A stretch of DNA of 55,232 bases, taken from contig NW_027191511.1 of the NCBI RefSeq assembly GCF_011745625.1, forward strand, positions 1 to 55,232. Direction: 5' to 3'. The DNA is from Cladosporium halotolerans (Eukaryota). The notes below the pieces were generated by a model. The model did no database searches, was not told where the DNA came from, and saw only the letters and a program-made list of their open reading frames with translations. Of the stretch, positions 466 to 24,903 are shown in pieces; position 1 is the stretch's first letter; each line of letters opens with the position of its first letter. Both the position numbers and the translations under genes were made by a program.

Positions 466-2791
466 ATGCGTTACTACAGCATGCTTGTGTCGCTCGCTTT
501 GGCGATAATTGTTGTGATACGAGCAAAGATGCGCATTGACGATGACTGCGTTGTTATTCTTTCTGCAAAGGTAAAGACTGTCATCTATATAGATAGCGCT
601 GATCAGGCAGCAGTGCCCAAGATCAGGCGGCAGCAATCCTTCCCAAGGCAACGACAACTCTCCGCATACAGTTGAGGCATATTCACAACAATAATCATTG
701 AGGGTCAGGCTCTTGAGGGTCGGGGCCTGCTGAACAGCTTGACCGGCTCCACTAGCAAGATATCGGACAACCTCAGCAATAAACGTCTGCACAACATGCT
801 CCCTGCTGTGGGCCCAATTCTCAATCGCACCCATGTTCCTGGTCGTCCAAAGTGGAAGGGAGAGGGAAGAACTGCTGGCAGCCCTGACTACCCTTACCTG
901 TTCGCCAATCCACTCCCGATCGCAGAGACTGCCATGCCTCAATTCACCGAGGTGGTCAATGGTGTTCCTATTGACTACTACGAGATGACTATCGAGAGCT
1001 TCGACATTGCCCTCTTCCCAGGCCATGGTCTCACCTCTCTTGTTGGGTGGGTGAAATGCAAAGATGTCTTAACGACCCATGCTAATGGCTCACAGATACA
1101 ATGGAACCGCGCCTGGCCCGACTTTCAGAGTCGAGAATGGCCGTGAGACCGTTGTGAGAGTCTTGAACCACGGAAACCGCACTGCTGCAATGCATCTTCA
1201 TGGTATGAGTTCGCACGCCGTCTGGGACGGATGGGCAGCGGACGAGCTCGAGATCGGCCAATACAAGGACTATTACTACCCCAACAACGAAGGCTCACGC
1301 ACGATCTGGTATCACGACCACGCTGAACGCCACACTGCCGTTGATGCATACGAAGGCCAGTCTGGTGTGTATATCATCTATGACCCAGCTGAGGATTCCC
1401 TAGGTCTGCCCAGCGGCAAATACGATATTCCTCTCTGCCTTTCGGACAAGACCTACCAGGACAATGGCCAGCTTGTCTCAATCGAGGATATTGACCTCAA
1501 TTTCGTCGGCGAGTTCATCCAGGTCAACGAGCAACAACCTTGGCCTTACCTAGAAGTCGAGCCCCGCAAATACCGTTTCAGACTGTATGATATGTCTGTC
1601 AGCCGCCCGTATGACTTATACATCGTCGACGAGGACGCCAACTGGCTCGAGTTTCAGGTCATTGGTTCTGACTCAGGCCTTTTCGGCCACCCAGTAGCGA
1701 CCAACGACCTGACTATGGCCATGGGCGAGCGTTACGACAGCGTCGTTGATTTTTCTGGAGTCAAGGGCCGGAACCTCACCTTCGCCAACAAGCTCCAGAA
1801 TCCTGCGATTGAGGACTTCGAAAATACCGACAAGGTGATGCGCTTTGTTGTCGGCCACGAAGTCAGCGACGACAGCAACAACAGTGCCGTTCCCGACACC
1901 CTGAACGCCAATCTCGAATTGCCCAGGAAACAAAATAGCACTAAAGTTGACCAGGCTTTCAACTTTCAAATGGGCGGCGACGCCACCTGGACTATCAACG
2001 GTGTTGCTTTCAGTGACCCTAATGCCCGTGTTCTCGCAAAGCCACCTCAAGGCGCTATCGAGCTGTGGGAGCTCCGCCACACTGGCGGCCCCGGCGTTCA
2101 CCCTGTTCACATTCACTTGGTCAACATGCAGATCGTCAGCCGCTCCGGTGGTCCCCGCGGTCTTTTGCCTTACGAAACAGCTGGTCTTAAAGATACCGTT
2201 TTCCTCCAGCCAGGTGAAGTCGTTCACGTTCTCGCCTACTACGGCCCTTGGAACGGTCTTTACATGTTTCACTGCCACAACCTTGTCCACGAGGACCATG
2301 AGATGATGGCCGCTTTCAACGTCACCCGCCTCGAAGAGCTGGGCTATAACTTCGAGTCTACCCAGGGCTTCGATGATCCTGAGGGCAAAAAGTACTCCGC
2401 TGTCGACTTCAGCGCTGATGCCTACGACTACGACGCGAAGCACTCTCTCGTCCGCTCCCTTGGCGAGCTCAACGCCTACCAACCCGCATCTAGCATCAAG
2501 GCAGCCCAAGCCAGCTGGTACGCCGAGAATGGCGACAATAGGAACCCATCCACGACCTCCGTCACCCAATCTGAATCCGTCGCGCCCTCCAGCGCAGGTG
2601 AGGGCTTCAGCTCTTCCGTCACCAGCGAGGCCCTCCCCGGTTTTGAGGCATTGCCAACAGTCGACCTACTTGACGAGCTGGGCTTGGACAATCCCCTCCG
2701 CCGCGACGACACAACGACCTCGCCTAAGTGGCAGACTCTGGCCAAGCCGACTGCCTTCCCTGCAACTACCGCTACGCCTTCGCACAAGTAG
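466..2791 (+). CDS. Multicopper oxidase, bilirubin-oxidase/CotA-like (3 cupredoxin domains, Ser/Thr-rich tail); in-frame TGA at 673-675, so either a pseudogene or a protein starting at ATG 796
   Basis: Cu motifs HLHG, WYHDH, HPVHIHL, HCHNLVHEDHEMM. Intron 1047-1095 (GTGGGT..GCTAAT..CAG) joins SLVG|YNGTAPGPT. Signal-peptide-like MRYYSMLVSLALAIIVVIRA at 466 is in the same frame as ORF 739-1146, separated by one TGA. Confidence 0.9.
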
Positions 2792-3049: not shown

Positions 3050-3538
3050 TGTGCCCAGCGTCTACCCAGAGGACTTCCATATCGTCCGCAGCGTTGTAAA
3101 GATATTCGCAACCATCCTTGGGCTTCTCTCATACATAGTGATGGAAAGGCTCTACATTTCGAAAGAGCGCGTATGAATCAGCCGTCGCACATGTTATCTC
3201 ATGAATATGATTCTACTTCGGCTCTGCTCTAAGACATTGCGGTATCTTACGGCGCTGGCTTCATTAATCCTCGTCACTATATTGGAGACGAGCAGGGACT
3301 CGAAATGGTCATTTCAAGCTTTTCGCGGCTCGTTCTTTCCGTCCAAGTCTTCATCGCCGGCTGGCAGCTGCCCGCTCTATATTTTCGGCTAAGACGGCGC
3401 TTATTGGTAGTACTCCTTGGCCCCGGCATGGGCATTACCTGTATCATCTCTTCTCTCTTTGTCTGGGCGTTGAGTGAGAATGTCAGATTCCTGAAGGCTC
3501 TGATTGTGGGGGCTTGCATCTCATCCACCGATCCTGTC
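3050..3538 (+). pseudogene. 5' fragment of a fungal CPA1 Na+/H+ antiporter (NHA1/Sod2-like)
   Basis: Translated pieces IFATILGLLSYIVMERLYISKE and FSRLVLSVQVFIAGWQLP..LLGPGM..LIVGACISSTDPV match the family N-terminus. Similarity stops abruptly at TDPV. Confidence 0.75.
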
Positions 3539-3744
3539 ACGGGCCGAGCCCCTAACATACTTTTAGTGTTGCTATTTGTATGATGGGAGGTGTGCTTGAA
3601 GTATCTCTCGGGTTATGAGTGCAAGGCAATGTTCATTGTGGTTTTAGGCAGCGTTTAGGGACGGCTCGTACGGTCTCCGTATATAGCCTAAATGAGAATC
3701 ATTATCATTGTTATGAACATTATCCTCATGATCGATTCCTAACA
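3535..3744 (+). mobile_element. Short retroelement remnant (TGTCACGGGCCGAGCCC...TAACA) containing a LINE-type 3' stem-loop
   Basis: Begins TGTCAC at the antiporter break point and ends TAACA (LTR-like TG..CA). Contains GGGACGGCTCGTACGGTCTCCGTATATAGCC (3658-3688), homologous to the LINE 3' ends at 30571 and 36801. No TSD found. Confidence 0.45.
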
Positions 3745-5167: not shown

Positions 5168-5680
5168 TCACCACTGCTGTTGCGGCGGCCACGCCTGCTG
5201 TTCTTGCCGGTCTTGCTTTGGCTGGACCGAGTACTCATGGGTAGATGAATGGTGCATAACCTTTTGCTCAAGTTGAGCTGCGCTGAGCGAATGACAATCG
5301 GCGTTGTAGTTGTTCAGGGAAAGCGTGAAGGTAGGTTGGCGAAGGAGACTTCTGATGAGGTCACGGTAGCGCTCATTCTCCGAGAGTAATGCAACGTTCT
5401 CCCGGCGAAGATTGATGACATCTTGAGTCGTGAGAGCGACACCACTTTCGAGCTGGCTAATGTATTCTACTCGATATGAGGATTCAATGTATTTTTGCCC
5501 GATTCGCAGCGAGACTCACCCTTCTTTCTTGAGCGGAACGCGCGAGCGGACACCTTGTTCCTGAGTCGTTGGCGCTCCTTACTAGAGAGCCTTTTGCCCT
5601 CTTCAGAAGCCAGGAAGCGCTCATCCTCGCTCATCTCTTCCTCTCACTTCTTTGGCTCGGCGATTTGTGTAAAGAGTTGT
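5168..5680 (-). pseudogene. bZIP transcription factor (MBZ1-like basic region), N-terminally truncated or pseudogenised
   Basis: EEEMSEDERFLASEEGKRLSSKERQRLRNKVSARAFRSRKK|EYISQLE..LRRENVALLSENERYRDL. Intron 5519-5467 (GTGAGT..TAG); stop 5170-5168; in-frame TGA at 5646-5644 just upstream of the acidic patch. Confidence 0.8.
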
Positions 5681-5801: not shown

Positions 5802-5874
5802 CTTGGCTCTGACTACGACTTGGCTTTGACTACGACTTGGCTTTGACTACGACTTGGCTTTGACTACGTCTTGG
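5802..5874. repeat. 17-bp tandem repeat (TGACTACGACTTGGCTT), ~4.3 copies
   Basis: Units at 5810, 5827 and 5844 are exact; 5861 is partial with one mismatch. Confidence 0.95.
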
Positions 5875-6605
5875 AGGTGCTATGGTCTTGGAACAGTGGG
5901 TAAGCACGCAGCTTCAAATCCATTTGTTGCGCAAAGGTTTTGACCGATATCACCAAAAGATGACGTTGGAACTTGTGTCTTCACCAATGAACAGTGGCAT
6001 TCATCGTCGCTATTAACGGAATCCTCTTGGCGAAAGCGAACGATCACCCGGAAGCACGAATGCTGCCGCCTCCCTACACAATACGTGTAGAGCAAGTATA
6101 ACATAAAAGCGTCATTGGGTGCGAACCTGGCAGCAAAGCAGGGTTTGAAAGATTGATGGCATAACCCAAGCCGCAAAGCGGGCCGTTCGTGGTATCATGC
6201 TGCCCAGGCAGCAAAGATTGCGAAGCAGCATTTTGAACCAATCCTTGTCTATGGAAACATGAGAGACAGTGATGACATTGCGCAAAAATATACAAAGCGA
6301 TATTACAATTGCATGCAGCCCGTGCACCTATTCGTACAAGAAATCAGCTCTAAACTTACACCTCTTGATCTTTCATGATACATGAAACTCGAAGAAACCA
6401 TATGGATACGCTGAGTATCACTGCTATAAACTAACTTGTTGCGATCGGTCCATGGTAAATATCCAGCTTCGAAGAGAAATCTCAAATTGATCTAGACTGT
6501 GGAAATGAGGGGGATGCGGGGCCATCTTCGTAGCAAGGACTGACGCATCGCAACATCGGCTGAGCAGCGTCATTCGTAGGGGATCTACGCCATAACTATA
6601 CTGGA

Positions 6606-8267
6606 TTACTTTTTTTTTGCTTTCTTTTCCAACCACCTTGCGACTCTCACAAGTGGCACATCAACAATCTTCCAAAACAAATGCGCCACAAGAATTGACA
6701 GCACCAACATAGTAAGCCACCCCAACGCCAACGCTCCGAACCAACCTTTTAGCCCACCATCTAAAGTCTCAAATAACTTTGGCTGCATCGCGAAGCCTGC
6801 GGAGTGCAACAAAGGACCATGGACCAGATATAGAGCGTACGAGATCTTGCCAAGGTACTGTGGTACAGACAAGCAGAGAAAAGCATTGACGTAGTAGAGT
6901 TGTTGAATAGACCAGACGATGAAAAGCGCAGAAAGAGCATGCCAGAACATGTACGGGTGCGTGTAATTGGTCTTGTACATGGGTAGGGTAACGCGGTGAA
7001 GCCAGCTGAAACCGGGGGTGCGTTCGGGCGCATCGTCGGGAAAGGATAAAAGGTACAACGCGGCTAAGAAAAATATGATCTTCATTGTCGCCAAGGCGTA
7101 TGCAGTCCATCGTGAGAGAACTGTTGCTCGTCGTGGGAGATTTGTCTGAAGCAAGTCGGACTCCCTGGCTTCGTTTGTGGCCTTTTTCGCTTGCCAAACA
7201 TGAGAGTCCGCAACCAGAGCTCCGCCAGTGAAAGCAGCAACATCCCATCTCTCAGATAAGAAACAGTACATCGTGACCAGGACGAATGTTCCAGAACGCC
7301 ATCGTTGCGAGAGACCGGCAGAAGCAAGCAATACCACGAATAGAACCATCGATCCCCTGAACTCGACCGGAATTGTCCAGGTATGAGGATCGTACTCGCT
7401 GTAGAACAGTCTCCACTGGAACGGCGTCGACCAAGCCCACCACATACTCGCAAAGTTTCTAAGCTGTTTCACGGAACTCAAAAACCGGGGGGGATGCTGT
7501 TCCCGCCATCCGGTAAGCCAAAGAGAGGATTCCTGGAACTCATGCCCTGCGTCGAAAGCTCCGAAAAAGGCGGCAAACATTACCAGCAACATGCTGGAAG
7601 TAGCAGGAAGGTATAGTCGCATCCATCTTCGAATTGTCAAGGAAGCTAAGCGGGAGAAGCATTTCACCAGTTCTGCGTCTGTATGTGCTCTCGACGAGGA
7701 TAAGAAAGCATAGCTAAGAACATATCCAGAAATCACGAAGAAGAGTGTGACCATCGCTCGCCCTCGGATAATAAGGCAAAGGATCGGGAGCTGATGTGGA
7801 TGTCTCCAGTCCTGGTTGTCGAGTTCTACGCCGAAGCCATGCGTAATAGTTTTGGTATGAGGGTACAGAAAGTGAAAGTTGAACACAACAAGACAGGCAA
7901 TGCCGCGTAAGCCATCGTAGGAAGCTGTTCCACAAGTTGCTCGCGAAACACTGCGATCCGGGGCAGCTGACGGCGAAGAGATTGAAAACAGTCCTTGGAA
8001 AAGCTGTACTAGTCGCGCTTGGATGGGAATCTTGTGCATAGCATCGCAGAGCCTGGTGCGAAGGACTGGTCGGGCTATCCGAGGCGACTCGAATGTCTCT
8101 ACCGTGGAAAATCTTTGCATGTGTCAGCCAAAAGCCGTCATGGCAATTATTCGTTTTCAAGCTCACTCCAGTGGTTGAACATTGGCGGACGGGGAGTCAC
8201 CCTTCTCGTAGTCGTGAATATCTGATCCCTGTCTCAGCGCCGAGGACTGCATCGCCTGTACATCCAT
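6606..8267 (-). CDS. Acyltransferase family 3 (OafA/Chip3-like membrane O-acyltransferase)
   Basis: DGLRGIACLVV, RRWMRLYLP, YDPHTWTIPVEFRGS, YLGKISYALYLVH; many TM segments. Upstream exon MDVQ..QPLE joined by intron 8166-8113 (GTGAGC..GCTGAC..AAG). Confidence 0.9.
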
Positions 8268-9386
8268 CGTAACTGTGAAACAAGCAACAGTGGTTGAGGT
8301 GCGTAGTACGCACAAACTGTGAGAGTTATCGAACAGTATGCTGGCCACATAGAACACGTTTGTTATATAAGGGTTTCGCTCAACGACAGCATCTCTGTAA
8401 ATACGCGTTGCCAAGCTGTATCGTTTGGCCAAGGGACCTTTCGGGTCTGAGACGACACGAGGCACTTCTTTGCGAACTGAACGGATCTGAGGGTGTACGT
8501 GCGATCGTGACCATAAAGACGGTTATCAAATCGTGCACATCGAGACGAACCGGCGAATGGCCGACTAGACTTGGTTCCAGACTCTCTCTATTGTCTTGGT
8601 CCGCTAATAGACCGAGATAAGGTTCAGTAGGATCGTTCGTGATCAATGCCAAGGGCACCGCTGTGCTTGGATGTCTTGAGTCGATGTTCCAGAATGTCAT
8701 CAACCTTGAACAAAAAGTCGCGAAACAGACGACAATGCCAAATCGTACTGTCGACGAAAGCGAGGATGGCAAACAATACCAGCTTTATCGGTGCAGCTAT
8801 GTCTCCACAAATGGGCTTTTGCTAAACCTGTCGATCATATTAGAGGCTATGTTGTCTGACTGACTTGTGTGTTCCAACATTGCACTGATCGAAGTCATTC
8901 TGCCCGGGCAGCTTAGGTACGCTAAACGTGAGTTGCCAAGCGGCAAAAACTGGAGTCAACCCCTGATCACCTAATCGTTCAACTCTCTTTTTGGGAAATA
9001 TGTCAATCGTCCGTCCGGGGCGGCGAGGGTCCCATACACGTCCTTTGATGCACGTCAGAGATACTCGCGAAGGGGCAAAGTAATGCCTGAGTAGTGCATT
9101 GATATGGCTCGAGGAATTGCGTCACGTTTCCTGCAAGCCTCCACGATTTGATCGAGGCTACAAGTAGAAATATTGCATCCCTAGTATTTGCCTTTCGAAA
9201 TTCTGTTCGCGACGCATCACGATGCATAAACAACACGCCACATGAATGCGGCCTGTCGTCTTTGTGAGATACGTCGCGCTTCAAGTGAGCAACCTTAATA
9301 TACCCAGCGGCCTTATTGAAAGACTTCGCATTTCAAAACGACCAAGTAGGCTAGAGAATTGTTTGCATCGTGTCCATCCTTCTCAG

Positions 9387-10417
9387 TCACCCATAGTGCT
9401 CGATATTGATGAAAGTAAACTATAGGTTGGCATTAGTGGTTGTGGTATGAACACTTGTCGAGTCATTGGCTATGATCTTACCTCGATGTACTGAGGACGG
9501 CCGGAGCTCACATCGCCAATCCAATTATGTTCGTTGAAGACTGGCCGCATTCCTAAATGCTCCAGCCTCTCGAACCAGTTTACCAACTCCTGTACCGTGC
9601 TTGGAACACCGTCTTCCGATATCAGATGCAATTCGATCAGGAGTTGTCCCACAGGCAAGGTTTTGGCCCCTGTGCCCTCAATCGAATCCATTAAAGCAGC
9701 CAGCGCTTCAAATTCTGAGCCCTCGATATCCATCTTCATCACGTCGATGAAGTCATGTCCATTCTCTGCCATGATATCCCACACTGCCAGCTGGGGCGGT
9801 GATTGCTCTCTGTCGGTCGTCTTCGATATGGCCGCTTTCTTGAAATGGACCCTCGAGCTTGGCGGAACCTCCTTCGCCCAGCCGTCCACGGAGTAGTCGA
9901 ATCCCCATATCTCAACGTTCAAGCGTTGCAAAAGAGCAGCCTCGAATGAAGAGTCATGCTCGACACCGAACGAGTACACAACCATGGTGGACTCCGGGTT
10001 GGCCTCTGAAGACGGTCCTGGAGTCAAGGTTTCGTGTCGCGACATTCCACAGACCCATTTCCCACCATCTCCTAACTTACCCACACGCTCCATGTCGTAG
10101 GGGCAGTAAAAGGTCGGACGAAACAGATCCCAGACGTTGTAGGGAAAGATAAAATCCTGGATGCGCTTGTTAGGCTCTTTGAGGAAGCTGTCCGAAAGCA
10201 TGCGAGATCGGTCTCCGAGGGACTGCCGCCAAAGTCTCTCTGCGAGAACGAGGTTTGCACTGCCCCGGTGCTCTTCGTTGTACTCGTATAGAAGGTGTCT
10301 GGAGTGAGTGGCCGCTGATGATCGAGGGCCGAATTCCTTCGCCAAAGCGAATAAGAATGCAATGATGGCAAGCGCGAGAAAGAATGCGATGGCGAGATTG
10401 GGGCGTACGAGAGACAT
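9387..10417 (-). CDS. SAM-dependent methyltransferase, Methyltransf_22/METTL24-like, type II membrane topology
   Basis: N-terminal TM (LAIAFFLALAIIAFLFALA); FYCPYDMERVGKLGDGGKWVCG, VVYSFGV..SSFE, IDVMKMDIEGSEF, GQLLIELH. Intron 9481-9420; last exon FTFINIEHYG*. Confidence 0.9.
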
Positions 10418-10924
10418 CTGGAGTCGAAAGAGTACATGTGGAAACCCACCAATAATGATATGTGATTTGTGAGTTATATAAAAACAGTCAACAAGTCTTG
10501 AGTTTCGTCCACCCGTGATGCCGTACGTGGACTTGGCTGGGCACCGCGTATGACCGGGGCTGTGGCATATGTCAGTCGTGCGCCTGAAACGTTTCGGTTG
10601 CTGTATGACGACGCATAGCATGCCAAAAAAGACTATCACATCAGCTTTTCCGCGTAACCAGGAAGTCGAAGCGTCGTATCCAGCATGCCAAGCGTAACCC
10701 TGCCCAAAGTTCCCAAGACAAATAGGCGGCTCACGAAACTCGGGAAAGCTTGGAGTTATGCCGCCTACTATCGCATAGCGGGGCTGAGCCGGATCGGTGG
10801 GACCACTAACACTTACTAGCCGTTACCAACCGAGCTATGACCCATACTGCCCGGGCAGAATGGCGGAAGGGTACTTTAGGTCTCGAGTCTTTCTTTCGTA
10901 GTACCACGGAGGCCAAAGAACAAT

Positions 10925-12633
10925 ATGGCTTTCTATCATATCTCTCTGGCTGGTTCTCTTGCCATCAATGCCGGGCTGGCATATCACAAACACAAAGCGA
11001 CACCTTCCCCTTTGCTACTTCACAAAGCATCGGATGAGTCGCCTCAGCAAGCATGCGAAGGTTATGAATCGGATTCTGATTGGTCGACTACGACGGCAAA
11101 CGATTGGGCAGTAACGTCGAGGCAGTACCTTACTGTGTACGGTCTGGCTGCGGCGGCTGACTGGTTACAAGTGAGTCGTGCCAAAAGCCAGCTCCATCAG
11201 CTTTGGTCCTAATGATACAGCAGGGCTCGTTCATATATGCGCTGTACAAACATCGTTATGGGCTCTCCGAGCCGAGGGTGGCAGCGCTTTTTGCGACTGG
11301 ATTCGGTTCTGGAGCCTTGTCCGCCATCGGCATCGGATACCTGGCAGATCGGTTCGGGCGAAAGAAGGCATGCATGGCGTATTGCCTTCTCTACGCCAGC
11401 TCTTGTGCTTTGACAATGATCAACAGCTATAATCTCTTGGTTGCTGGTCGAGTACTTGGAGGAATAAGCACGACGCTGTTGTATAGTGTCTTCGAGGCAT
11501 GGGTGGTAGCAAGAGCGTCAGCGCAAGAGGACAGCACGGGGGCAATAAAGCAAACACTGACTTCTGCTGCTTCTCTCAATGCCATAGTTGCAATATGCGC
11601 TGGGTTTGTCAGCGAGGCGCTCGCTTTAGTCTTTGCAACCAAAAAGGCGCCATTCGTTGGCAGCATTATATGCTTGGCAATCGCGGCTTCAATTATCGCC
11701 ATTCATTGGGTAAGCACATTGCGTGCCACACAAACACAATATCAACCTCTTGTATTAACGAAGTAGCAGGACGAGAACTATGGGGGCGACCGAACAACCA
11801 ACGAGCGGCAACCAGAACCGCTGACATTGTCTTCCGAGACAACATCACGAGGTATAACACCCAAGAGACTTGTGACTCACGCTGCTAACAGGCATACAGG
11901 AAGAGTGGCATCAATCACAATCATAAACTGTGTTATGGAAGGCTCGATGTACGCAATGGTATTTTTTTGGGCCCCATCCATCGAGCGGGCTCGGCCTGCC
12001 TCTACCGGCGAGGCGCCATATGGCATTATATTCGCGAGTTTCATGTGTGCAATGTAAGTGCACATAGATCGAGTCAGCCAGGCAGGAATCACTTTCAGCT
12101 GCCGCTCGCCACTGTCAACCTTATGATTGGAGAAAGATGTGCTGATGCCTGAAGGGTAGGATGCTTGGCACATGGCTTTGTTGGTACTCGACAACATCAC
12201 CTAGCTCGTCGGCAAACGAGACACAGCTCGTTCGGGGTTGCTTACCGGTATCAGCCCTATGCTTGCTGTGTACCGTGCTAAGTTCCGATGAATTCGTCCG
12301 CTTCTCTGCGTTCTGGGTCTATGAGCTCTGTATCGGACTTTACTTCCCCAGTATGGCGCTTCTGAAAAGTCGAATAGTGACAGACTCGCATCGGGGCTGG
12401 ACCTATGGGCTGATGAGACTGCCACTGAACGTCTTCGTGGTTTCCATGCTATGTACGACGGGCGAAGGTATCTGCCCAATCCACAACTTGTGAGTCGCGT
12501 TTACTGACAGCTCTTAGGTGATTCCTATCGCCGAAATCGGTTCATCATCTGCAGTGCACTACTCATGTGTACCTCATTGATCATATCGCCCATCTGCCCA
12601 CAGGGGCGACCTGAGAAAAGATCTGGTGGTTGA
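10925..12633 (+). CDS. MFS transporter, MFSD5/DUF791 family
   Basis: YLTVYGLAAAADWLQ|GSFIY, LADRFGRKKAC, GRVLGGISTTLLYSVFEAW, W|DENYG, EGSMYAMVFFW, ELCIGLYFP, MRLPLNVFVV. Introns 11171-11223, 11710-11769, 11852-11898, 12054-12159 and one near 12468-12517. Confidence 0.9.
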
Positions 12634-13049: not shown

Positions 13050-14497
13050 CTAACGTACATAAACAGGGCTCGCTACCAACGGCGATTGTCTTGCGGGTGA
13101 TGCATGGGCTTCTGTGAGCTCATTTGGAGGACGAATTTTGAAGATTTGTAGCGGCACTGCAAGACGGAGACGCACTGCTGTTGCTCCGTGCCTACAGCCC
13201 TCTAGTTGGAGCTGAATGGTGTGTCGACGCGAGAGGTAAGGTGTCGAGAATGTTGTGGATCCCTCAGTGAGTTCCGTAAGAGGGAGGAAGAGACGCTCGT
13301 GTCTGTGCCAATGAGACTCAAACTCAATAGGAGCCGTCGTGAGGATGAATCTACGCTTTCGCACAGATTGCGAGCCGGTAGGGCATGGAGCAGCGCCTCC
13401 ACCATCGCACGACGTCCAGTCTCGCAGGACCAATTTGATCGTCCGCAAAGGCGTACTCGTTGCGGCAGCAGCGATATAAGGGTCGGCAATGGCGTCCTGC
13501 AGAGTCGGTAGTTCGTATAAAGGCACTACAGATACAAATGTGGTGGATTCCAGCAGCCAAGATATTGTCACGTGCATTTCGTCAGGCTGTTTCGAAGCTT
13601 CATCGGCACTCGTCGAAGCTTGATGTAGATGAAAGAGAGCATCAAGGCTCATATAGTGCTCCTTCCCTTGCTGTCGAGAAGTACCCAGGTTCATGACCTT
13701 TGGTTCGCGTATCGTAACAGCTAGGCGCATTCGAGACTGAGCCGAGCAAGGTCTGCTGAACCGCCAGGTTTTGATTATCGGCGGGCTCCTGATGCTCTTT
13801 CCGTTACTGCATTTGTACTCGCCAGGAAAATCGTCGACCGATACGGGTGGTGGATTTTCGAGTGAGACGTTGGTTACACCGATGTCGACAAGGTAGCAGA
13901 GAATCTCACGCTCTCCTTGGAACAGCTGTGCCACGACTTGGTAGCGCACAGACCCATGAGCTCGTGAGCTGGTACTATTAATTCGAAGCCGTCGTGTGCC
14001 AACAGTGAGCGAAGGAGGATAGCAAGTGGCATGACCCAGAAGTCCAGTGCAGCCTTGAGACATGGGCGTTGGGACACGAAAAGTAAAGGGTATTACCAGT
14101 GACCCCTCGTCACCTGCCATATCGACCCTTTCCACGCTAGCGTGTGTATCGACGAGCTCGAGGAACTGGGTAGCAACGTTAGCCATATCAGTGGTCGCAT
14201 TTTGGGGACCTTACAAGTTGTTCTAAGCTGCGCATCAGCACCAAACCCGTCGCCGAGATGCCGTAGGTAACACTGGTTTCCAGCTTTCCTGTTTGATGTT
14301 AATCCACAGATCACATGATCATGAAGTTACTCATATCACTGACCAGTTAAAGTGAGCTTAACGGCGTGTGAGCGGCATGCTTGGTCGCGATCAATGTGAA
14401 CGGTACCGCACACCAAGCCAGGTAAATCGAAGACCGGCGCTGCGTTGCCCGTGGAGTGGCGCCCGTCGAAGCTGAAAGATATCGGTGAGCCTGCCAT
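13050..14497 (-). CDS. Arrestin-like (arrestin_N fold) protein
   Basis: Exon 1 PVFDLPGLVCGTVHI..VKLTLTG; two short introns; IPFTFRVP..YPPSL..VRYQVVA; TFSTPYLSRRHTIQL; C-terminal SPVYVR (PY-like). Confidence 0.7.
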
Positions 14498-14942: not shown

Positions 14943-16883
14943 TTATTCATGACCCAACATTTCATTCGAAGCCACGCCACCTCCCCTCGCCACCAAAGAC
15001 CTCTTGCTCATGACTTGACCTGGGTTACGGTCACCGAATTGCTCATCGGAACGCTCCTGAGTGCTTGCTGTATTACCCGGCGTATGATCATCTCCACTTC
15101 CTGAAAAGCCACCTGCGATTGATTTGGGAGATTCTTGGCCGGCATTACAATTTTTCTGCCGCTTTTCTGCCAGGACGATTTCGGGTCTCTCTGGCTGTCC
15201 GCCAAAACTCGCAAGGATGATGTCGGCATTAGCAGTCGGTGCGTCAAGAGTAGATAATTCTTCGACAGAAAACAACCGAGTGAGTATAATCCAGCGCAAA
15301 GGAATGAGTGCAATAATGATCACTGGGAATCCAATTGCACCAATGGTTTGGGATATGGCAACGCTCGCTGCGACACCAAACCAGCGAGTCAAGTCATGCC
15401 ACAGAATGCGCCGCTTTGACAGGCGTGTTCGAGGATCGGCTTGCTGGTTGAATACGTGTTCACGGAATAGATACATCAGATTGGAGGTCATCTGATTGCC
15501 TTCAATCGAGGCCCATCCCACCATGAAAAATACCCCTGCGAAAAGAGCCCGTGGCATGGTGTGTAAGACGTCCAGGAGTGGCCCGGTCATGAGACCGCAG
15601 AAGGCAAGTGCCATCAAGAAGTGCGAGACACGTTGCTCCTTGACTTCGACGGCACGAACCACTTTGGTTGGCACAACGTTTTCTTCAGAGTCGCCAACTT
15701 TTTCTTTACGATCGATCACGACCTCCTCATATACGGTGCATGAGTCGGTGTGTACCGGCGCTTGAGGCACAAGACCGTTGGGCAACGGAACGCCGATGAT
15801 ACCAGCTGCAAAACAAGTGCATCCAAGAAGGAAGAAGTCCCAGTGAAATCCAGCGGGTTTGGTCAATGGAAACTGTTTAGCCTGGGCAGTGATAGAGGAG
15901 ACGTTGTGGTCGTAATAGAACAATAGAGTCAATAGAATGCCCATCGGAAGGGAGATGAAGATCCAAGCAATCTCAAGATTCCAAAAGTCGATGAGCCACG
16001 GACCGGGGCCTGGGCGGTCGACGGCTGGGTAGAAGGCGCGGGTCCTGGGGATGCGCATCAAGTTGGCCTCTGTGATCCGACCAGGAATGTGCGAGAACCC
16101 TGTCCACCAGACAGTGGCAATAGGGTATGCAAAATCGGCAAGCACTTTGCGTACCCACGGGGTGAACATCTTTGTTTTGCCGATGTTCTCGAGAGCGTAG
16201 ACACTGGCCCAGTAGCACAATGCAATGACGATGCTAAGGTATCCCCCGGTGATTTGACCGGCGTCTTCGTAGAACTGGGCAACAAGTTCCTCCACACCTT
16301 TGATCATGTAGATGATGCCGACGTACATGCCGAATGCCTCGCTCGAGTAGTCGGTGATGTACCGCATGTAGTCGCAGAGATTGAAGATTGCGGTGATCCA
16401 ATGCGTGACAGCAGCCCAGATCGCAACCCAGGCGATGATCTGAGGATACTGATCGACCATGCCCTGAGCCTTAGTGATGTCGTAAACGGTGTAATTGAAG
16501 AGAGAGATCAGACCTGTGATGCCAACCACGGTCAATGGCTGGGCAGATAGCAGACTAAAGACAACAGCGGCCAGAGCAGAGGAGAAGAGGGCTTCATTGA
16601 TTCCGAAGAAACCCTCAGTATTGCGGCGCATATCGAGTTGGAAGGCCAGCGCCGGAAGCAGGTTGACAAAAGTGATCCGGATGGTCGCAACCATAGTGCG
16701 GTAGTTGAGGCCGTCAACCCAGTCACTCCAGTAGTACGGAAGTCGTCGTCTGATGTCCCAGTAGATGCCTCGAAATGGGCGGAGAACGCGATAACGCCTC
16801 CAACCATCGACATTGTCCCATCGGTAAGGGTCGCTGGCATAGTCGTAGGATTTTGCCGTCTGCTGCCTCGAAAGAGTCTCCAT
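14943..16883 (-). CDS. SLC4 / HCO3- cotransporter family anion exchanger (BOR1-like borate transporter)
   Basis: DIRRRLPYYWSDW, NLLPALAF, QPLTVVGITG, LLFYYDHNVSS, GFHWDFFLLG, NGLVPQAPVHT, EQRVSH; multi-TM ORF. Confidence 0.92.
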   Translation of the reverse strand: METLSRQQTAKSYDYASDPYRWDNVDGWRRYRVLRPFRGIYWDIRRRLPYYWSDWVDGLNYRTMVATIRITFVNLLPALAFQLDMRRNTEGFFGINEALFSSALAAVVFSLLSAQPLTVVGITGLISLFNYTVYDITKAQGMVDQYPQIIAWVAIWAAVTHWITAIFNLCDYMRYITDYSSEAFGMYVGIIYMIKGVEELVAQFYEDAGQITGGYLSIVIALCYWASVYALENIGKTKMFTPWVRKVLADFAYPIATVWWTGFSHIPGRITEANLMRIPRTRAFYPAVDRPGPGPWLIDFWNLEIAWIFISLPMGILLTLLFYYDHNVSSITAQAKQFPLTKPAGFHWDFFLLGCTCFAAGIIGVPLPNGLVPQAPVHTDSCTVYEEVVIDRKEKVGDSEENVVPTKVVRAVEVKEQRVSHFLMALAFCGLMTGPLLDVLHTMPRALFAGVFFMVGWASIEGNQMTSNLMYLFREHVFNQQADPRTRLSKRRILWHDLTRWFGVAASVAISQTIGAIGFPVIIIALIPLRWIILTRLFSVEELSTLDAPTANADIILASFGGQPERPEIVLAEKRQKNCNAGQESPKSIAGGFSGSGDDHTPGNTASTQERSDEQFGDRNPGQVMSKRSLVARGGGVASNEMLGHE

Positions 16884-17496
16884 GCTGTGACAACGTAGGC
16901 GTTGTACGGGCGGATATGGGACAGTATAGGAGAGGAACAAGAGGGAAGTGAGACAGGTTCGAGGTCAAACGCACGGGGCGCCGGGCAGCTGTCGACGTCA
17001 CATTTTTTCTTTCAAGCAGAGACATGGCATCCGAGACAATAAATGTCTATCGTTGTTGCACATTGCTCGGCGCCTTCTGCCGGCCCAAGTCTAGCTTTGC
17101 CGTGCCGCGACGTCAAGCGCCGCACGGGCGGTCCCCTGTTCTGCCCGGGCAGCAGACCTTTGTTCGCAGCCGCTGGCCCCACTCGTCTCCCGTGTGCACT
17201 GCTAGTCGAAGCTTGTCCCGCTGGTTGCCAGGCTTCGTGCCAGTCAATGCGATGTACGATGCAGTCCTCACATCGCAGCCTCTGCCTTGCCAGTTCGGTT
17301 CCCGTGTCTAGCTGATCCAGCATTCCCGTTCGCATGCTGCTATATACCTGTGCGAGCCTGACTTTATCGGCCAAGGAACGTCTGCAACCCTCAGCATTCG
17401 CTCTCAGGAGCGCCCTTCCGCATCAAGGAACTCTCAAGCAGCCGTGTCGGCACCCAGGAAAGCACAGAACCATCTCCAGCCTCTCAGTCGGCTGAC

Positions 17497-18329
17497 ATGG
17501 ATCACGCTGAGAAGCCTCCCGCCCCAACGAGAGTTCCTAAGGCCTGCGACAGATGCCGCATCAAGAAAGCGAAATGCTGCGGTGGTCAGCCTTGCTACCG
17601 GTGCCGTACAAATGACACGCTCTGCGTTTTCGGGTGAGTACACCCTTTACAACTGGAACAGTCGTGTCCATTTCAATGACTGATGGCTTGAGCAGAGACA
17701 AAGTCAAAGCAAAACGAACGCCGTACCCCAGAGGATATGTTGAAATGCTTGAACGTCAGCAGACACAACTAGTCACTGGCCTCCAAATGATGTATCGGAC
17801 CTTGGTCGACATTGGTAGTTGGACTGGCGAACGATTACCTCGATACAAGGATTGTCCAGCCACACACGACATTCTGGATGCACTTGGCGTAGTTTCAGCG
17901 CAGAATGTGGAGCAGCCGGATTCAATGGTACCACGCTTCCAAGACATCCATCGAGTTACCAACTTCAAGGCTGTGGACGACTCAACAACATTCGATCTAT
18001 TGGACGACAACGACGGTGCCTGTGGTTCCTCAAATGAGGCCGGAGAAATACTGTCTGGTGACAAACCATCCAGCTTACTTGCAGACAGCATAGGCCAATG
18101 GCAACCTGAGAAGGAGAGCACGCTCGTGGTGTCGGCTTTGGCTTTGGCGGAACGGTCAGCTACCACAATGAATCATGCAGCAGCCTCGCCGGGTGATGAC
18201 CCGTCAGCGACATACAGCAATTCCATTTTCCATCAACCATTATGGACGCTCACCGACGACGTGAACAACACCACGAACCTAGCAAACCACGAGGATTATT
18301 TTGACACATGGCTGACCCATGTGAGCTGA
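17497..18329 (+). CDS. Zn(II)2Cys6 transcription factor (Fcr1-like)
   Basis: RVPKACDRCRIKKAKCCGGQPCYRCRTNDTLCVFG; intron 17634-17695; YPRGYVEMLERQQTQLVTGLQ dimerisation segment. Confidence 0.88.
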
Positions 18330-19370: not shown

Positions 19371-20787
19371 ATGAAGATGACAGGTTCGAAGAGCCATCGT
19401 GCATACCAGCAAGTCGTCCTTTATATCAGATGCCTCTCCTGGTACTGCGACTGACAAATTCAGCAGTATCGGCGAATGGATGCCCATCGACCACCGCATG
19501 CAGCGCGAGTGGCTGAAAAGCGTGATCGAACATGTTGACAGAACGCCCAACGATCTCCACCCAGTGCTGGAAGACTTCAAGTACCTGATCGAGCATGACA
19601 CGAGATTGTTTATACTGGTGCAATCGATGTTCGAACAAATCCCAAACAAACACCCCTATGATGCGGACCCATCAGCGGAGCACAAACAAGTGCGGGATTA
19701 CAAGCATATGCTCGAGCTCCTAAATCACTTCCTCACAACTGCGCCGCGCTGGAGTAATTCTTGCAGCCAGGCCGGTGTGGTGGGATTGCCCATCAACGCT
19801 GCTTTGGACTGGCCTATGGGGACCCTCAGTGGCTTCGCTTTTTTCTTGGATCCGGCTGTTAATGCTTTCTTCAAACAGCTTCTGAACGCGTGGGGTGAGT
19901 TCTTAACCTCTCAACAATCAGCAAAAGAGGCACTCGGCAACGACGATGCAGGCTGGTTTGGTCGGTCTGGCAAGAAGCACCTGACCGCCACCGTCAACGC
20001 CGCATCTTTCAGCAACAAGCCCGTTGACTTCGAAATACTGTTTCACTGCGATCCCGCGAAGCAATACCATGGCTACACCTCGTGGGATGATTTTTTCACG
20101 CGAAGGTTCCGCTTCGAGAATGGCATACGCCCAGTGGCAGCCCCGGAAGACGACCGTATCGTCGCCAACGCTTGTGAAAGCAAGCCATACAACGTGACAT
20201 ACGATGCGCAACTACGCGACCGTTTCTGGATCAAAGGACAGCCTTATTCGATTGGCGATATGCTTGCACACGACCCACTCGCAGACAGATTCCACGGGGC
20301 AGCTGTGTACCAAGCATTTCTTTCCGCCTTGAGCTATCACCGCTGGCACGCGCCCGTCAGCGGGAAAGTGCGCAAAGCCTACGTAAAGAACGGGACTTAT
20401 TTCTCGGAGCCGCTTTTTCAAGGACTCGCTGAGCCATTAAATGCAGCTAATGGTATTATCGATGAGTCCAACGAGACGACATCTCAGGGGTACCTCACAG
20501 CCATCGCAACGCGTGCAATCATCTTCATACAAGCAGATAACCCCGATATCGGGTTGATGGCGTTCATCGGCGTTGGCATGGCGGAAGTCAGCACCTGCGA
20601 GATCTCTGTTAGAGAAGGACAAAGAGTGCAGAAGGGTGAAGAGATCGGCATGTTCCATTACGGCGGAAGCACACATTGTCTGCTGTTTCGTAAGGACACG
20701 GCAGTGCGGGACTTTCTGAAACCTGGCCTTGAACACAATGTCCCAGTGAGGTCGCAGATAGCCGTGGTCGATCGAAGCGACGGATAG
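19371..20787 (+). CDS. Phosphatidylserine-decarboxylase-family enzyme (PSDC domain, PsiD-like pyruvoyl decarboxylase)
   Basis: GLPINAALDWPMGT, SWDDFFTRRF, NACES, IKGQPYS, YQAFLSALSYHRWHAPV, GMAEVSTC, FHYGGSTH self-cleavage motif. First exon inferred through a GC-AG intron 19409-19463. Confidence 0.9.
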
Positions 20788-21026: not shown

Positions 21027-22227
21027 TCAGAGCTGCACTTGACGCTGCATCCTCACATTTCTCCAAAATTCGGCGACCTCGTCTGGCAGCAGTGTATCCA
21101 TAACCGAGATTTCCCAGCTGTCGCGTTCAGCGGTCACACGATCGTGGAAAGCGCACATCATGCGGTACCGATCCCCAACACCAGCAAAGTGTAGCATCAT
21201 ATCCCCTTTTACCACATGATACCTGTTCCAAGCCTCATCTTCGTCTCGCGGATACGAGTTGAACCATCTTGGAGGAACGTAGATGGAGCCACTGGCAAAA
21301 AGAGGGTCCTGTATCATTCGCTCCATGGCACTCTGTTCTGTGAAAGGAAGCTCCTCATCTGGTTTGTAGGTGGGGTAGGAAAGAACGTTGGTGAGCATGT
21401 TCACACTCCAAGCGTTGACGCGCATTGCAAAAACGCCGTTGTTCAATCCATTCCAGTCTTCCGTCACTAGCAGGTTAATACCGTCTAGGTCTTGGGGTGG
21501 TAGAAAGGTTTCCACGGCGATCAAAGGATTGATGACGAGAGTGTCGGCGTCAAACCACTATTCAAGATGTAAGTCAGTCACACCGCCATAGTTCCTCGTG
21601 GATAGTTTTCTGATCAGATCGGGATGTCTGAATCTGCTATGGAGGCATCAGAGCTGGAGAGTATGTTGAATGTTGGAACATACTGCGAAATCGTTAGGAT
21701 ATGTTTCATGTGACAGAGTATCTATCCTGGAACTTACCCATCAACCACTGCAACCGTGCGTCTTCCGGTTTTGTCATTTCGTGCAACAGCACGGCTAACA
21801 ACGCGGCCTCTTTACTCCATAGACCATCGAGCAGTGGGCGGTCGAGTACGAAGACGGGATAATGGTGTATCTCACTATGTCTTAAATGGGTGTCGAATGC
21901 CGGAGACCGTCCTGTACCGTATTTCCCGTGCATGACAGTGCACTTGCCAACCCGAGACGAACCGGAGGATGCGTGGTTGCTAATAGGCAAGACATCTGAT
22001 CCAAGATGGACGACTTGCGGTGCAAGAGCGGCGAAAGGTAAGTGGAGGGTCGCGAGGGAACCCAATGGTGATGGAACGGATCTTGCCGTCCAAGTCGCAT
22101 TGCAGACATCATGCGTAGTGGTGAGCGTGTACTCGGTCCATGCCTCCTTACCAATGACGAAAAGTACGCATGCGAATAATGCATAAAACGAAATTTGAAG
22201 AAAAGTCTCGCGTTGCGTTCGTAGCAT
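21027..22227 (-). CDS. Glycosyltransferase family 34 (GMA12/MNN10-like galactosyl/mannosyltransferase)
   Basis: N-terminal TM; GLWSKEAALL; LQWLM|WFDADT (DxD); FLPP; DWNGLNNGVF; EQSAM; WFNSY; HFAG. Intervening sequence 21738-21558 is a nested intron. Confidence 0.9.
21558..21738 (-). other. [D1,2] spliceosomal twin intron (stwintron)
   Basis: Minus strand: ATG|G-GTAAGT..CCTAAC..CGCAG-TATGT..ACTGAC..TAG|TGG. Removing internal intron 21737-21683 rebuilds donor GTATGT and gives an in-frame M|WFDAD. Confidence 0.8.
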
Positions 22228-22890
22228 CTTGTCAAACGACTGACAAAGTTCTGGTTGTGTGGCCCTCGAGAGGATTTGCTTCTGGGACGGGGGGGCGGGA
22301 TATCATGTGAGACGAAAGGATCATAAATGGGACTTGATTGCTTTTTGCATCAGAACACTTATCGCCTTTGGTCCATAGCTCACAACATCATGAGAAGTCG
22401 GAACCCGTATTGTGAGACGCCAAGTGCACGGTAATACGCGTCCTTGACGAGTCCCACTTGGCGACAAGAAGACCCATTGGTTTCTTGATCGTTTGCATCG
22501 CACTACGCTCTAGATAAGGCTTGAGCGAGGTATTGAAAAGCATAAAACCAGATAGAGACAGGATAGAGAAGGAGCGCAAAGTTCTCTCGCACTGTGACTT
22601 GGAACAATGGCACAGTAGAGTAGGTGACGAACATTCAACGACAATAGTATTCAGTTGATGATGGCATGAGGTAGCGCCTGGCAAAGGGCGACACTCTGTA
22701 GACTTGGTCTGAGGAAGTGGCATGATACTGAGTAGCAGCTCGGCTGCCCTACCGTAGGCACGCAAAGTTTGACTGCGCCACCGCGCACCCGCTGTCGATC
22801 GCGTTGCTGCCCGGGCAGAATTGCCTGGACACACCAAGGCTCGTGGACGGTCGACGGTGACCCGCAGTAACCCCCTTCCACTCCGGTTCG

Positions 22891-24903
22891 ATGAGCTTGC
22901 AATACGCCTACTTGCCGCCACCATCACAGTGCAATCCTCTGCGTACACTGCACATCTTTTCTCTCGTGCTAGTAAATTTCCTGCACCACTGCCCCTCAAC
23001 AGATATGACGGTAGAGTGGGAGACTGGCTGTCACACGCTCGGGCGTCAGAGGCTGGTTGCCAGCATGACCGCAAGCATCTCCGACCGGCTCCCTACGGTT
23101 CTGAGCGCCGTCCTGCAATCACATCAAATCACGCCCGGTGAACCTTTCCGTCTTCAGTGCCAGCTTTCCATTGATGCCCTGGCCAGTGCTACAGGTCACA
23201 AAACAGCATCGATACCTGTGGCATCATTTGATATCGGGCATCAACTCTCGCCGCCTCTGCAAGGATCGCAGGTGGGAAGCATCCATCAGACGAACGCTTC
23301 CAGCCCTCCATTCTCGGAGCCTCCTGTCGAGCAGTTGATTGATAAAGGGGCCTCCCGCCCGAACACCGACCATCTCCCTTTAACGAAGACTCGAAAGCGT
23401 GGCCGCTCAGCAATAGAAGCAGCCGAGGAAAGCACGCCTGCACGACAGACCAAGAAATCAAGGCAACAGACGCTCTCCACACACAACACTGCCCCACAAG
23501 AGGTGTCCTTGAAGTCAAACGACGGTGCGTTGGACAAGCTGATCACTGGCGTTTGGCAAGCTCTCTTTTCGGACACCAAACTCGATCCCAGCGAATTCTC
23601 AATATATGTTCAGACAATAGCGAACTCTGAAGAGCTTAAGCTTCTCGCCGGCTCCGAAATAGAGGAAGCTGATATCACGACGGGCGACAGCACTGTTGCT
23701 GCGCGGAGCCTCTTCAGTCGTGTCAATCTGATTGCCCGAAGAGTCAGTCAGACGAGCAGATTCTGCCGCGCGCTGGAGGTTAGCGTCCAAGCACGTTGGG
23801 TGCAATGCTTCGATGACCGCGTCCAAGTGCTATCGCGGTCCCACACGCCAGAGGTAGCCAAGAAGATGACAATGGGTGAGGCCTGTTCCGACTTTGGCTG
23901 GTCTGAGAAAGAATTGCGGAACAAAATGTGCATCTGGCGCGGTTATCAGCACATCGCAAAATGCGGAGGGTACGTCACCCTCATATTTGCAGGACCTGGG
24001 CTATATAGGTTTTGCAAGTACCGACTTTCCTTCGACGACAAAACTTTCGCGGCACTCCACGGCTTACGAGCGGCATTTGAAGTCGCGGCGGACACTTTGC
24101 AGCCTTGCTGGAGGCGTGTACTGGGATTCCTGGGCATGTCACAGGAGCGGAAGTATACAGGGCATCTGCACGATTGGGTCATTCGCGGGCCTGGCAATGA
24201 GCCTGTTCCGCTTGCGACCACGTACCATCAGTGGGACAGGAATTTTTCGTACCGCCATATCGAGGGTAGCGTCATTGACCAGGACGCATGGGGCGATCAC
24301 GATCCTCGAAGTACATGTCGGCCTGGTGCGTCAGAAGCGCTAAGCTGCGAAGTCTGTCATGCACGTCAATCTGATGACAGCACTCAGAACGGCTGTAGGT
24401 GCTTTCCTGCCTTGTATGGTCATTCGCACGCAAGATTGCCGCCGGTCCAGATTATCCAAACGTCCAGCGGCAAAAACAACGGGCTCTTCGCATGTCTACC
24501 CTTCGAAGCAGGTGAGGCAGTGGGAGAATTCGTCGGCGAGCTCACCACTGGCATCACAGGCCTGGACGTCATGTTTGGCCAGACAGAGGATGCGTCTTAC
24601 CAAATTTGGCAAGGAAGGTCAGGAAACTACACACGTTTCGTGAACCACTCGTGCAAGCCGAATGCGCAATATGAACACTTCAACTGGCGTGGTACGCAGC
24701 GCATAGTGCTTGTCTCGCAAGGGATTAAAGCGAGTGACGAAATAACAGTCGATTATTCTGACGTGTATTGGAAGGTCAGTCCGTCCAAAATACTTTATGT
24801 CTCCTGTGGTAGAGCTTGACGATCTTACTGACTTCTACGCCAGGACTTACGCAAGAAATGTCTTTGTGGCCAGACTGAGTGTAGGTATCGAGATCGCGCA
24901 TAG
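22891..24903 (+). CDS. SET-domain protein with post-SET Cys cluster (start 22891 or 23005)
   Basis: NNGLFA..GEFVGEL, GNYTRFVNHSCKPN, EITVDYS. Intron 24775-24843 followed by CLCGQTECRY*. Confidence 0.88.

Follow-up and report, generated by a model that had tools for sequence, protein, structure and literature searches.

We analysed a stretch of 55,232 nucleotides from Cladosporium halotolerans (NCBI RefSeq assembly GCF_011745625.1, contig NW_027191511.1, positions 1-55,232 of the forward strand, genome label G000; hereafter the window), which carries three neighbouring genes for a membrane-anchored methyltransferase of the Methyltransf_22/FkbM type, a transporter of the MFSD5 (MFS_5) family and an acyltransferase-3 (AT3) protein. 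We propose that the methyltransferase and the MFSD5 protein form a module, comprising an enzyme and an importer of S-adenosylmethionine (SAM), for the O-methylation of glycans in the Golgi, and that this module belongs to an anion-stress regulon, possibly a borate one. We regard this proposal as reasonably probable, and the action of AT3 on the same glycan as less so. The main lines of evidence are the adjacency of the methyltransferase and MFSD5 genes in other fungi, and a perfect 12-bp palindrome, CTGCCCGGGCAG, which lies upstream of the AT3, methyltransferase and MFSD5 genes as well as of genes for a Bor1-like SLC4 transporter, a Zn2Cys6 transcription factor, a glycosyltransferase of family GT34 and a SET-domain protein. 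An earlier account of this DNA, made from its letters alone (the sequence-only reading), had confined the system to positions 6606..12633; these boundaries are too narrow, as the regulatory unit extends to about 24900, and that account overlooked the palindrome, the larger cluster around the trio and its connection with Bor1-like transporters.

The methyltransferase, the MFSD5 transporter and the acyltransferase

The methyltransferase gene (9387..10417, minus strand) has two exons, separated by an intron at 9420-9481, and encodes 322 amino acids, with an N-terminal membrane anchor or signal at residues 8-26. The MFSD5 gene (10925..12633, plus strand) has six exons and encodes 463 amino acids. 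The two genes are divergent, and their start codons are separated by 507 bp (10418-10924), the very distance given by the sequence-only reading. The AT3 gene (6606..8267, minus strand) encodes an AT3-only protein of 535 amino acids from exons 8267-8167 and 8112-6606, with an intact frame and a stop at 6606; its start was set at 8267 (8252 is possible) because a spliced contig of run X14 reveals a 5' intron of 54 bases at 8113-8166. The joints of the methyltransferase intron and of all five MFSD5 introns were also found in contigs of runs X14 and/or X16 (regions lacking X16 contig cover were excluded from the intron check), while the same introns were unspliced, as read-through, in runs X1 and X2. 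The library type of X14 and X16 is not on record and the sample code of X14 is that of the best DNA run, so that the joints attest to splicing in one study and say nothing on expression levels. Pfam matches and spliced contigs agree that the three genes are real, intact and located where the sequence-only reading had placed them. A single X14 contig (depth 6) carries a one-base insertion in a G run of AT3 at position 7486, which is probably an assembly error.

The methyltransferase matched PF13383 (58.4 bits against a cut-off of 22.4; E = 1e-15) and PF05050 (32.8 bits against 22.7; E = 9e-8), and these were the only families returned by the Pfam scan. It thereby passes the cut-offs of both the METTL24/Methyltransf_22 and the FkbM (2py6) families, with which it shares a class I fold. 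The fungal members are set apart from this broader family by their N-terminal anchor and by a conserved pair of cysteines, C105 and C123, which may form a disulfide in the lumen; the residues K228, D230, E232 and E235 are invariant across 55 methyltransferase sequences. Plant glycan methyltransferases are of the DUF579 (GXM) or the CGR/QUA type. The Pfam scan found no DUF579 domain in the window enzyme, which may act like a plant GXM but is not a member of that family.

An AlphaFold model made with 55 homologues (predicted local distance difference test, pLDDT, 89) contains a class I methyltransferase domain together with a helix at the N terminus and a long stem helix. In the widest structural search with this model METTL13 scored Z 10.5 over 167 aligned residues, and the FkbM structure 2py6 scored Z 10.4 over 193 aligned residues, with a root-mean-square deviation of 4.9. 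The top rows of Foldseek were fibrillarins and small-molecule enzymes with template-modelling (TM) scores near 0.3, and the PDB sequence search returned nothing significant (best E = 0.23). These searches settle the class of the enzyme and not its substrate; the absence of a glycan methyltransferase from the top structural matches excludes nothing.

The location of the enzyme was assessed on 120 homologues listed of 487 matches. A GGK motif was found in 118 of these 120, and a hydrophobic segment ahead of the motif in 84 of the 118, or in 83 of the 91 that have at least 100 residues before it. The window enzyme has one such segment, at residues 8-26, in line with the membrane-anchored enzyme announced by the sequence-only reading. 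This call uses hydropathy only, which does not distinguish an anchor from a cleaved signal; either of them would place the methyltransferase domain in the lumen.

The relatives of the enzyme point towards glycans. Distant prokaryotic and viral relatives (24-32% identity; metagenomic and viral contigs) were located beside, or fused to, glycosyltransferase or polysaccharide genes at 9 of 12 loci (nine long ones picked from 79, plus three from 26; most same-strand reading frames within 3.5 kb were scanned), and the viral scan yielded distant FkbM-like genes only. Clusters of look-alike methyltransferases are present in green algae, arthropods, diatoms and nematodes. A protein of Coccidioides is 40% identical to the window enzyme, and in the enzyme tree the Onygenales clade is sister to the clade of the window (support 98/97), while methyltransferases adjacent to MFSD5 occur in both main clades. 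The listed matches come from plant and animal pathogens, saprobes and salt-tolerant black fungi. A Fusarium lateritium protein of 641 amino acids, which joins the methyltransferase to a short-chain dehydrogenase, was treated as a probable gene-model merge and set aside. For the METTL24/Methyltransf_22 family, the portions of the literature covered by our search hold no published substrate.

The MFSD5 protein matched PF05631 on two exons (123.7 and 38.1 bits against a cut-off of 25; E = 1e-35) and has 12 hydrophobic segments; its exon 2 gave only weak matches, to OCT and NorA, when compared with the PDB. Its named matches and its tree comprise fungi, without plant or nematode sequences. This tree groups the same partners as the methyltransferase tree; such grouping also tracks the kinship of the species and is therefore no demonstration of co-evolution. 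AT3 matched PF01757 over profile positions 3-323 of 326 (88.9 bits; E = 4e-25) and contains DGLRG, NFHF, RRWMRL, WTIPVE and GKISYALYLVH, which we take to be conserved membrane motifs of the family. The PDB sequence search with AT3 gave no match. The genome holds at least two AT3 genes, the second of which, on contig C161 (locus L022), is arranged head to head with a glycosyltransferase gene of the GT32 type (PF04488) and has no palindrome.

The adjacency of the pair was then judged, from locus tags and accession numbers (which do not give gene orientation), among the 31 proteins yielded by the MFSD5 search. The methyltransferase and MFSD5 genes are consecutive twice in Neophaeotheca triangularis (g7072/g7071 and g8548/g8547), in two assemblies of Elsinoe australis, and in Bimuria novae-zelandiae; their accessions are consecutive in Polyplosphaeria fusca and Lentithecium fluviatile. 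The sequence-only reading had named the conservation of this linkage beforehand as a test of its proposal, and the adjacency is kept in five of the seven other species that have both genes in one assembly, and for six of the seven named Dothideomycete MFSD5 proteins. A further pair, in Purpureocillium, was dropped, the two proteins belonging to different species. The window genome has a single MFS_5 gene and two Methyltransf_22 genes; with numbers as low as these, and with the pair adjacent in other fungal orders, the arrangement looks like more than chance. As judged from these comparisons, the pair is the stable unit, kept adjacent across the Dothideomycetes, and AT3 a recurring, looser partner.

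Two outside lineages show this looser association. In three assemblies of Neoarthrinium moseri an AT3 that is 47% identical to that of the window, and likewise 535 amino acids long, lies two loci from the methyltransferase; on a metagenomic contig, L046, a 29%-identical AT3 lies in tandem behind the methyltransferase, at a distance of about 2 kb. The closest named relatives of AT3 (120 listed of 665) occur in Mycosphaerellaceae species that do not appear among the 120 methyltransferase matches listed. The membership of AT3 in the module, as put forward by the sequence-only reading, is thus favoured by its own palindrome and by its proximity to the methyltransferase in these two lineages, and disfavoured by the distribution of its closest named relatives. 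A metagenome scan gave about ten fungal-like loci among 79, mostly shorter than 5 kb; MFSD5, SLC4, GT34 and the palindrome's 10-bp core were absent from all of these.

The shared palindrome and the paralogous clusters

The window contains four exact copies of CTGCCCGGGCAG, 67-633 bp from start codons. They lie at 8900..8911, 633 bp upstream of the AT3 start; at 10847..10858, between the divergent methyltransferase and MFSD5 genes, 430 bp from the start of the former and 67 bp from that of the latter; at 17141..17152, in the divergent promoter of the SLC4 and transcription-factor genes; and at 22807..22818, in the divergent GT34/SET promoter. With up to one mismatch allowed there are five matches in the window, as compared with 0.11 expected. 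A short bZIP-like gene (about 5168-5635, minus strand; Pfam score below the cut-off) has a one-mismatch copy at 6200-6211, about 570 bp upstream, and may belong to the regulon.

The whole genome contains 12 exact copies, as compared with about 2 expected: four in the window, three on contig C60, two on C677 and one each on C24, C23 and C164. Nine of the 12 lie in three paralogous clusters, in 91 kb of DNA (P = 9e-21); one of the clusters is that of the window. The C60 cluster (C60:1-7700, locus L021) comprises a methyltransferase gene whose 5' end is cut by the contig edge and which has one frameshift, an arrestin-like gene, an SLC4 gene (78% identical in protein), a GT34 gene (57%) and three palindromes. 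The C677 cluster (C677:10857-21168, loci L023 and L024) comprises an arrestin-like gene, an SLC4 gene (82%), a Zn2Cys6 factor gene, a decarboxylase gene (70%), a SET gene (51%) and two palindromes. GT34 is thus present in two of the three cluster copies, and AT3 was not found on C60 or C677. The cluster copies are old: with a protein identity of 78-82%, the SLC4 paralogues agree at only 32-35% of fourfold sites.

Two further observations tie the palindrome to these genes and to the SLC4 transporters. First, it is the best local alignment in all six paralogous promoter pairs, while the five non-cluster paralogues have none (at least 3 mismatches in about 1.5 kb upstream). Second, it precedes four of the five SLC4 genes of the genome. 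One of these four is a resident, intron-bearing SLC4 gene on a 625-kb contig, with the palindrome about 530 bp upstream (C24:235196-235207, locus L027) and no cluster genes in the 20 kb around it; the fifth SLC4 gene, which has no palindrome, is 30% identical to that of the window and less like yeast Bor1p (E = 8e-70). The 10-bp core, TGCCCGGGCA, occurs 29 times in the genome, as compared with 10 for its reversed control. No cluster genes were seen near the additional core sites examined, and the regulon was accordingly not extended to them. Two exact sites, one within a long reading frame on C23 and one ahead of a GH31 gene on C164, were rejected as regulon members, as they match the roughly two copies expected by chance.

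Together, these data make the palindrome a strong candidate regulatory footprint within one genome. From its position, the Zn2Cys6 factor of the cluster is the likely binder. Near its three other paralogues, on C10, C13 and C142, cluster genes are lacking and any match to the palindrome has at least two mismatches. A SclB-like identity was considered for this factor and dropped, the last spacer of SclB being CX8C, according to an extract of PMC6078315, and that of the window factor CX6C.

The clusters lie on short contigs amid transposon, helicase and OrsD genes: a DDE transposase gene stands at the far end of the C60 cluster, and on the flanks of the C677 cluster lie DEAD-helicase genes, OrsD/DUF3505 genes and a fragment of a Trk gene. 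The cluster contigs showed no DUF3435 Starship captain; as they are 10-55 kb long, a captain could lie past their ends, and DUF3435 was found on C246 only.

Proposed mechanism and alternatives

We propose the following mechanism. The methyltransferase would be anchored in a compartment of the secretory pathway, its SAM-dependent domain facing the lumen; MFSD5 would bring SAM into this lumen, and the two would O-methylate the hydroxyls of sugars, probably mannose or galactose residues, in glycans that are secreted or part of the wall. The common palindrome would wire the pair to AT3, GT34, the SET protein, the Zn2Cys6 factor and the Bor1-like anion exporters; from this wiring, the glycan would most likely be extended (GT34), methylated and acylated (AT3) in a stress programme. 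The enzyme-plus-importer idea of the sequence-only reading is supported by the conserved linkage, the N-terminal segment of the homologues, the relatives located beside glycan genes and the common promoter site.

The importer function is suggested by known members of the family. In the part of Temple et al. (bioRxiv 10.1101/2021.07.06.451061) that we cite, Arabidopsis mutants of the MFS_5 proteins GoSAMT1/2 lose xylan methylation, and SAMT-1 of Caenorhabditis elegans is proposed as a Golgi importer of SAM; the SAM transport itself is described as putative for both GoSAMT and SAMT-1, there and in an extract of PMC7614267. Like these proteins, the window MFSD5 belongs to MFS_5 and stands beside an anchored SAM-dependent enzyme that would need lumenal SAM. 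Unlike them, it is physically linked to its presumed client enzyme, with which it shares a promoter. The client also differs from those of plants in being Methyltransf_22/FkbM-like, and MFSD5 is a family relative, perhaps an orthologue, of GoSAMT. The module thus resembles the plant arrangement of a Golgi methyltransferase with GoSAMT; its regulatory link to Bor1-like transporters is unexpected and well supported.

The sole target of the palindrome outside the clusters is the resident Bor1-like gene, and the inducer is therefore probably whatever induces that transporter. Borate is a serious candidate, to which we give somewhat less than an even chance; the inducer would otherwise be bicarbonate or alkaline pH. 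According to the part of PMC5541321 used here, the Bor1 orthologues SbtA and SbtB of Aspergillus nidulans are under the control of SltA and are induced by borate, not by bicarbonate; a borate-specific activator was postulated and, in that part, is reported as not found; and four SltA sites (AGGCA) are reported for each of sbtA and sbtB. An extract of PMC8624833 states that MoAE4 of Magnaporthe oryzae rescues the boron sensitivity of yeast. Like SbtA/SbtB and MoAE4, the window SLC4 protein is Bor1-like, and those transporters are under transcriptional control. Unlike in the SbtA/SbtB system, one 12-bp palindrome here links four SLC4 genes with genes that modify glycans; PMC5541321 uses none of the terms 'cluster', 'adjacent' and 'cell wall'. 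The palindrome half-site GGGCA differs by one base from the SltA site, and AGGCA itself occurs 0-2 times per 620 bp in eight of our promoters, versus the four each in sbtA and sbtB, for which that article gives no promoter length.

Borate esterifies cis-diols. O-methylation or O-acylation of mannose or galactose would, speculatively, take away the cis-diols that bind borate. This leads to a bolder version of the proposal, which we consider unlikely as a whole: the borate-specific activator that is still missing in fungi would bind the palindrome, and the cluster would be a boron-tolerance island working on two fronts. On the first, Bor1-like pumps with their own arrestin adaptor would export boron; on the second, the Golgi GT34, the O-methyltransferase with its SAM importer and AT3 would alter the cis-diols of wall glycans, thereby blocking borate cross-links, or else a secreted glycan would trap borate. 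If true, this would provide a founding fungal glycan O-methyltransferase, a function for the METTL24 family, and candidate enzymes behind 3-O-methylmannose in Onygenales and behind the methylation of glycans in nematodes.

A fungal O-methylated sugar is indeed on record. Extracts of PMC9409882 describe 3-O-methylmannose in the walls and glycoproteins of Coccidioides and Uncinocarpus reesii and name no enzyme for it. The system compares with ours in that Coccidioides, with its 40%-identical homologue, falls in the sister Onygenales clade. No methylated sugar was reported for Cladosporium in the literature searched. The enzymes that O-methylate Caenorhabditis glycans are stated to be unidentified in the part of PMC7614267 seen. 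The conserved pairing of an anchored Methyltransf_22 protein with an MFS_5 protein now names one candidate for a glycan-methylating enzyme; it also provides independent genomic support for the SAM-importer, over the molybdate, interpretation of MFSD5. In the window genome MFSD5 is single-copy, so that one knockout would test the idea, while for the control of Bor1-like transporters the palindrome provides a defined site and points to a candidate factor. The open-licence literature searched contained no description of the methyltransferase-MFSD5 pair, the cluster or the palindrome; supplements were outside its scope, and annotation tables may list the genes.

Several points weigh against the glycan-methylation module. 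Its Golgi location, the SAM transport and the glycan acceptor are what we infer. The fold search singles out no glycan enzyme, METTL13 tying with FkbM; the PsiD-like decarboxylase and SET genes of the cluster are left unexplained; and the second methyltransferase, on C60, is frameshifted in this assembly. In Colletotrichum truncatum the methyltransferase and MFSD5 genes are non-consecutive, and in Elsinoe batatas their tags are 46 apart. Some of the pairs tested had been picked for sitting on equal-sized contigs, and the adjacency count takes in one of the 13 named Sordariomycete MFSD5 matches. There is no MFSD5 on L046 (18.9 kb), and no AT3 of Neophaeotheca, Elsinoe or Pleosporales among the 120 listed of 665. 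The palindrome evidence comes from one genome and no other species. As for the literature, parts of the preprint of Temple et al. (bioRxiv 10.1101/2021.07.06.451061) also term MFS_5 members molybdate transporters, and MoAE4 is described as bicarbonate-induced in an extract of PMC8624833.

Among the alternatives, the one that survives best concerns AT3, which might be an independent passenger, leaving the methyltransferase-MFSD5 pair as the whole functional unit. We consider this unlikely, while it draws weight from the Mycosphaerellaceae relatives of AT3 outside the listed methyltransferase matches, from the lack of AT3 on C60 and C677, and from an identity of just 29% for the neighbour on L046. 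What speaks for a tie is the exact palindrome that AT3 has of its own, 633 bp upstream, when the C161 paralogue has none, together with its position two loci from the methyltransferase in Neoarthrinium.

A quite improbable alternative is a small-molecule cluster, in which a secreted metabolite or glycolipid would be the joint product of the PsiD-like decarboxylase, the acyltransferase, the glycosyltransferase and two methyltransferases, SET and FkbM-like; MFSD5 would provide the SAM or carry the product out. FkbM methylates a polyketide, a pathway-specific Zn2Cys6 factor with a common site is the usual layout of a metabolite cluster, and psilocybin clusters combine the PsiD decarboxylase, a methyltransferase and MFS transporters. 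The window likewise brings together a PsiD-like decarboxylase, closest to the PsiD-type amino-acid decarboxylases, with methyltransferases and an MFS protein. It differs from psilocybin-type clusters in having no kinase or P450 among the cluster genes (Pfam scan), methyltransferases of other families and two membrane-anchored enzymes. Moreover, no backbone enzyme was found among the 38 window reading frames scanned with Pfam; both the methyltransferase and GT34 carry N-terminal anchors; the decarboxylase has no palindrome of its own, whereas the resident Bor1-like gene has one; and the methyltransferase is adjacent to MFSD5 in many fungi, while no decarboxylase was seen beside it on L046. As the decarboxylase and SET genes are unexplained otherwise, the small-molecule cluster stays alive.

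Slightly less probable still is an oxyanion island, where MFSD5 would be a MOT2-type molybdate carrier beside a Bor1-like exporter, and its link to the methyltransferase would reflect shared regulation and not SAM supply. The part of Temple et al. at hand assigns Chlamydomonas and human MFS_5 members to MOT2, and database names agree, 'Molybdate-anion transporter' being found among those of our MFSD5 matches; the palindrome ahead of four of the five SLC4 genes, and the fragments of Na+/H+ and Trk-type transporter genes near the clusters, would also suit an oxyanion function. The same part of that preprint counters that molybdate transport at the plasma membrane is backed by neither biochemical nor localisation evidence, and the conserved anchored-methyltransferase neighbour of MFSD5 would be left unexplained.

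Finally, it is very improbable that a constitutive trio methylates and acetylates surface glycans to evade host lectins, the masking role suggested by the sequence-only reading: the trio does have one common promoter site and homologues in plant and animal pathogens, but such homologues also occur in saprobes and salt-tolerant black fungi, the palindrome leads to Bor1-like transporters rather than to host-related genes, nothing in our analysis concerns a host, and tectonin 2 requires methylated glycans (Temple et al., in part), so that methylation would make a target for this lectin and not conceal it.

Other genes of the cluster and of the window

The cluster continues beyond the trio. An arrestin-like protein (13050..14497, minus strand; 447 amino acids, three exons, introns found in contigs; ESM Atlas 0.93) has paralogues on C60 and C677; its gene comes after the SLC4 gene in all three cluster copies and has no palindrome of its own. 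A search with this protein at 1e-30 gave 11 representatives; of the 10 checked, those named were from Friedmanniomyces, Trichodelitschia and Paecilomyces, and these relatives revealed no wider cluster in a named genome. For each of the Logan entries P0003 (methyltransferase, 66% identical) and P0305 (arrestin-like, 35%) the longest contig measures 24,578 bases, which hints at the wider cluster in another organism.

The Bor1-like SLC4 transporter (14943..16883, minus strand; 646 amino acids, single exon; PF00955) was compared with solved structures, of which yeast Bor1p (5sv9) matched at E = 8e-105, plant BOR1 at 2e-53 and animal AE2 at 1e-41. The gene of the Zn2Cys6 transcription factor (17497..18329, plus strand; about 256 amino acids, one intron; PF00172) has a paralogue at the matching position of the C677 cluster.

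The decarboxylase (19371..20787, plus strand), which is PsiD-like with a PSDC domain (PF12588 and PF02666), has a GC-AG intron at 19409-19466 supported by a contig joint. Its closest solved relatives are PsiD-like 9jer (E = 3e-86) and PsiD 8x4q, which are not true phosphatidylserine decarboxylases. The GT34 glycosyltransferase (21027..22227, minus strand; 339 amino acids; PF05637) is predicted to be a type II membrane protein from its N-terminal hydrophobic segment; its intron of 181 nucleotides (21558-21738) has non-canonical apparent ends and is removed in X14 and X16. The gene of the SET-domain protein (23005..24903, plus strand; PF00856) has an inferred start and a stop after an intron near 24773-24841.

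On the other side of the trio, a multicopper oxidase with a Ser/Thr-rich tail is encoded at about 500-2791 (plus strand), without a palindrome upstream, and is followed by a fragment of a Na+/H+ exchanger gene at 3233-3583 (plus strand; PF00999), apparently a remnant. A tandem repeat of about four 17-bp units lies at 5810-5870, with one copy-number variant in run X1. Beyond the cluster, from 25000 to 55232, a high-copy repeat near 25.1-25.4 kb, a LINE-like (long interspersed nuclear element) sequence at 33.1-36.5 kb, a HET gene and NFX1-type helicase genes together indicate an accessory-type region.

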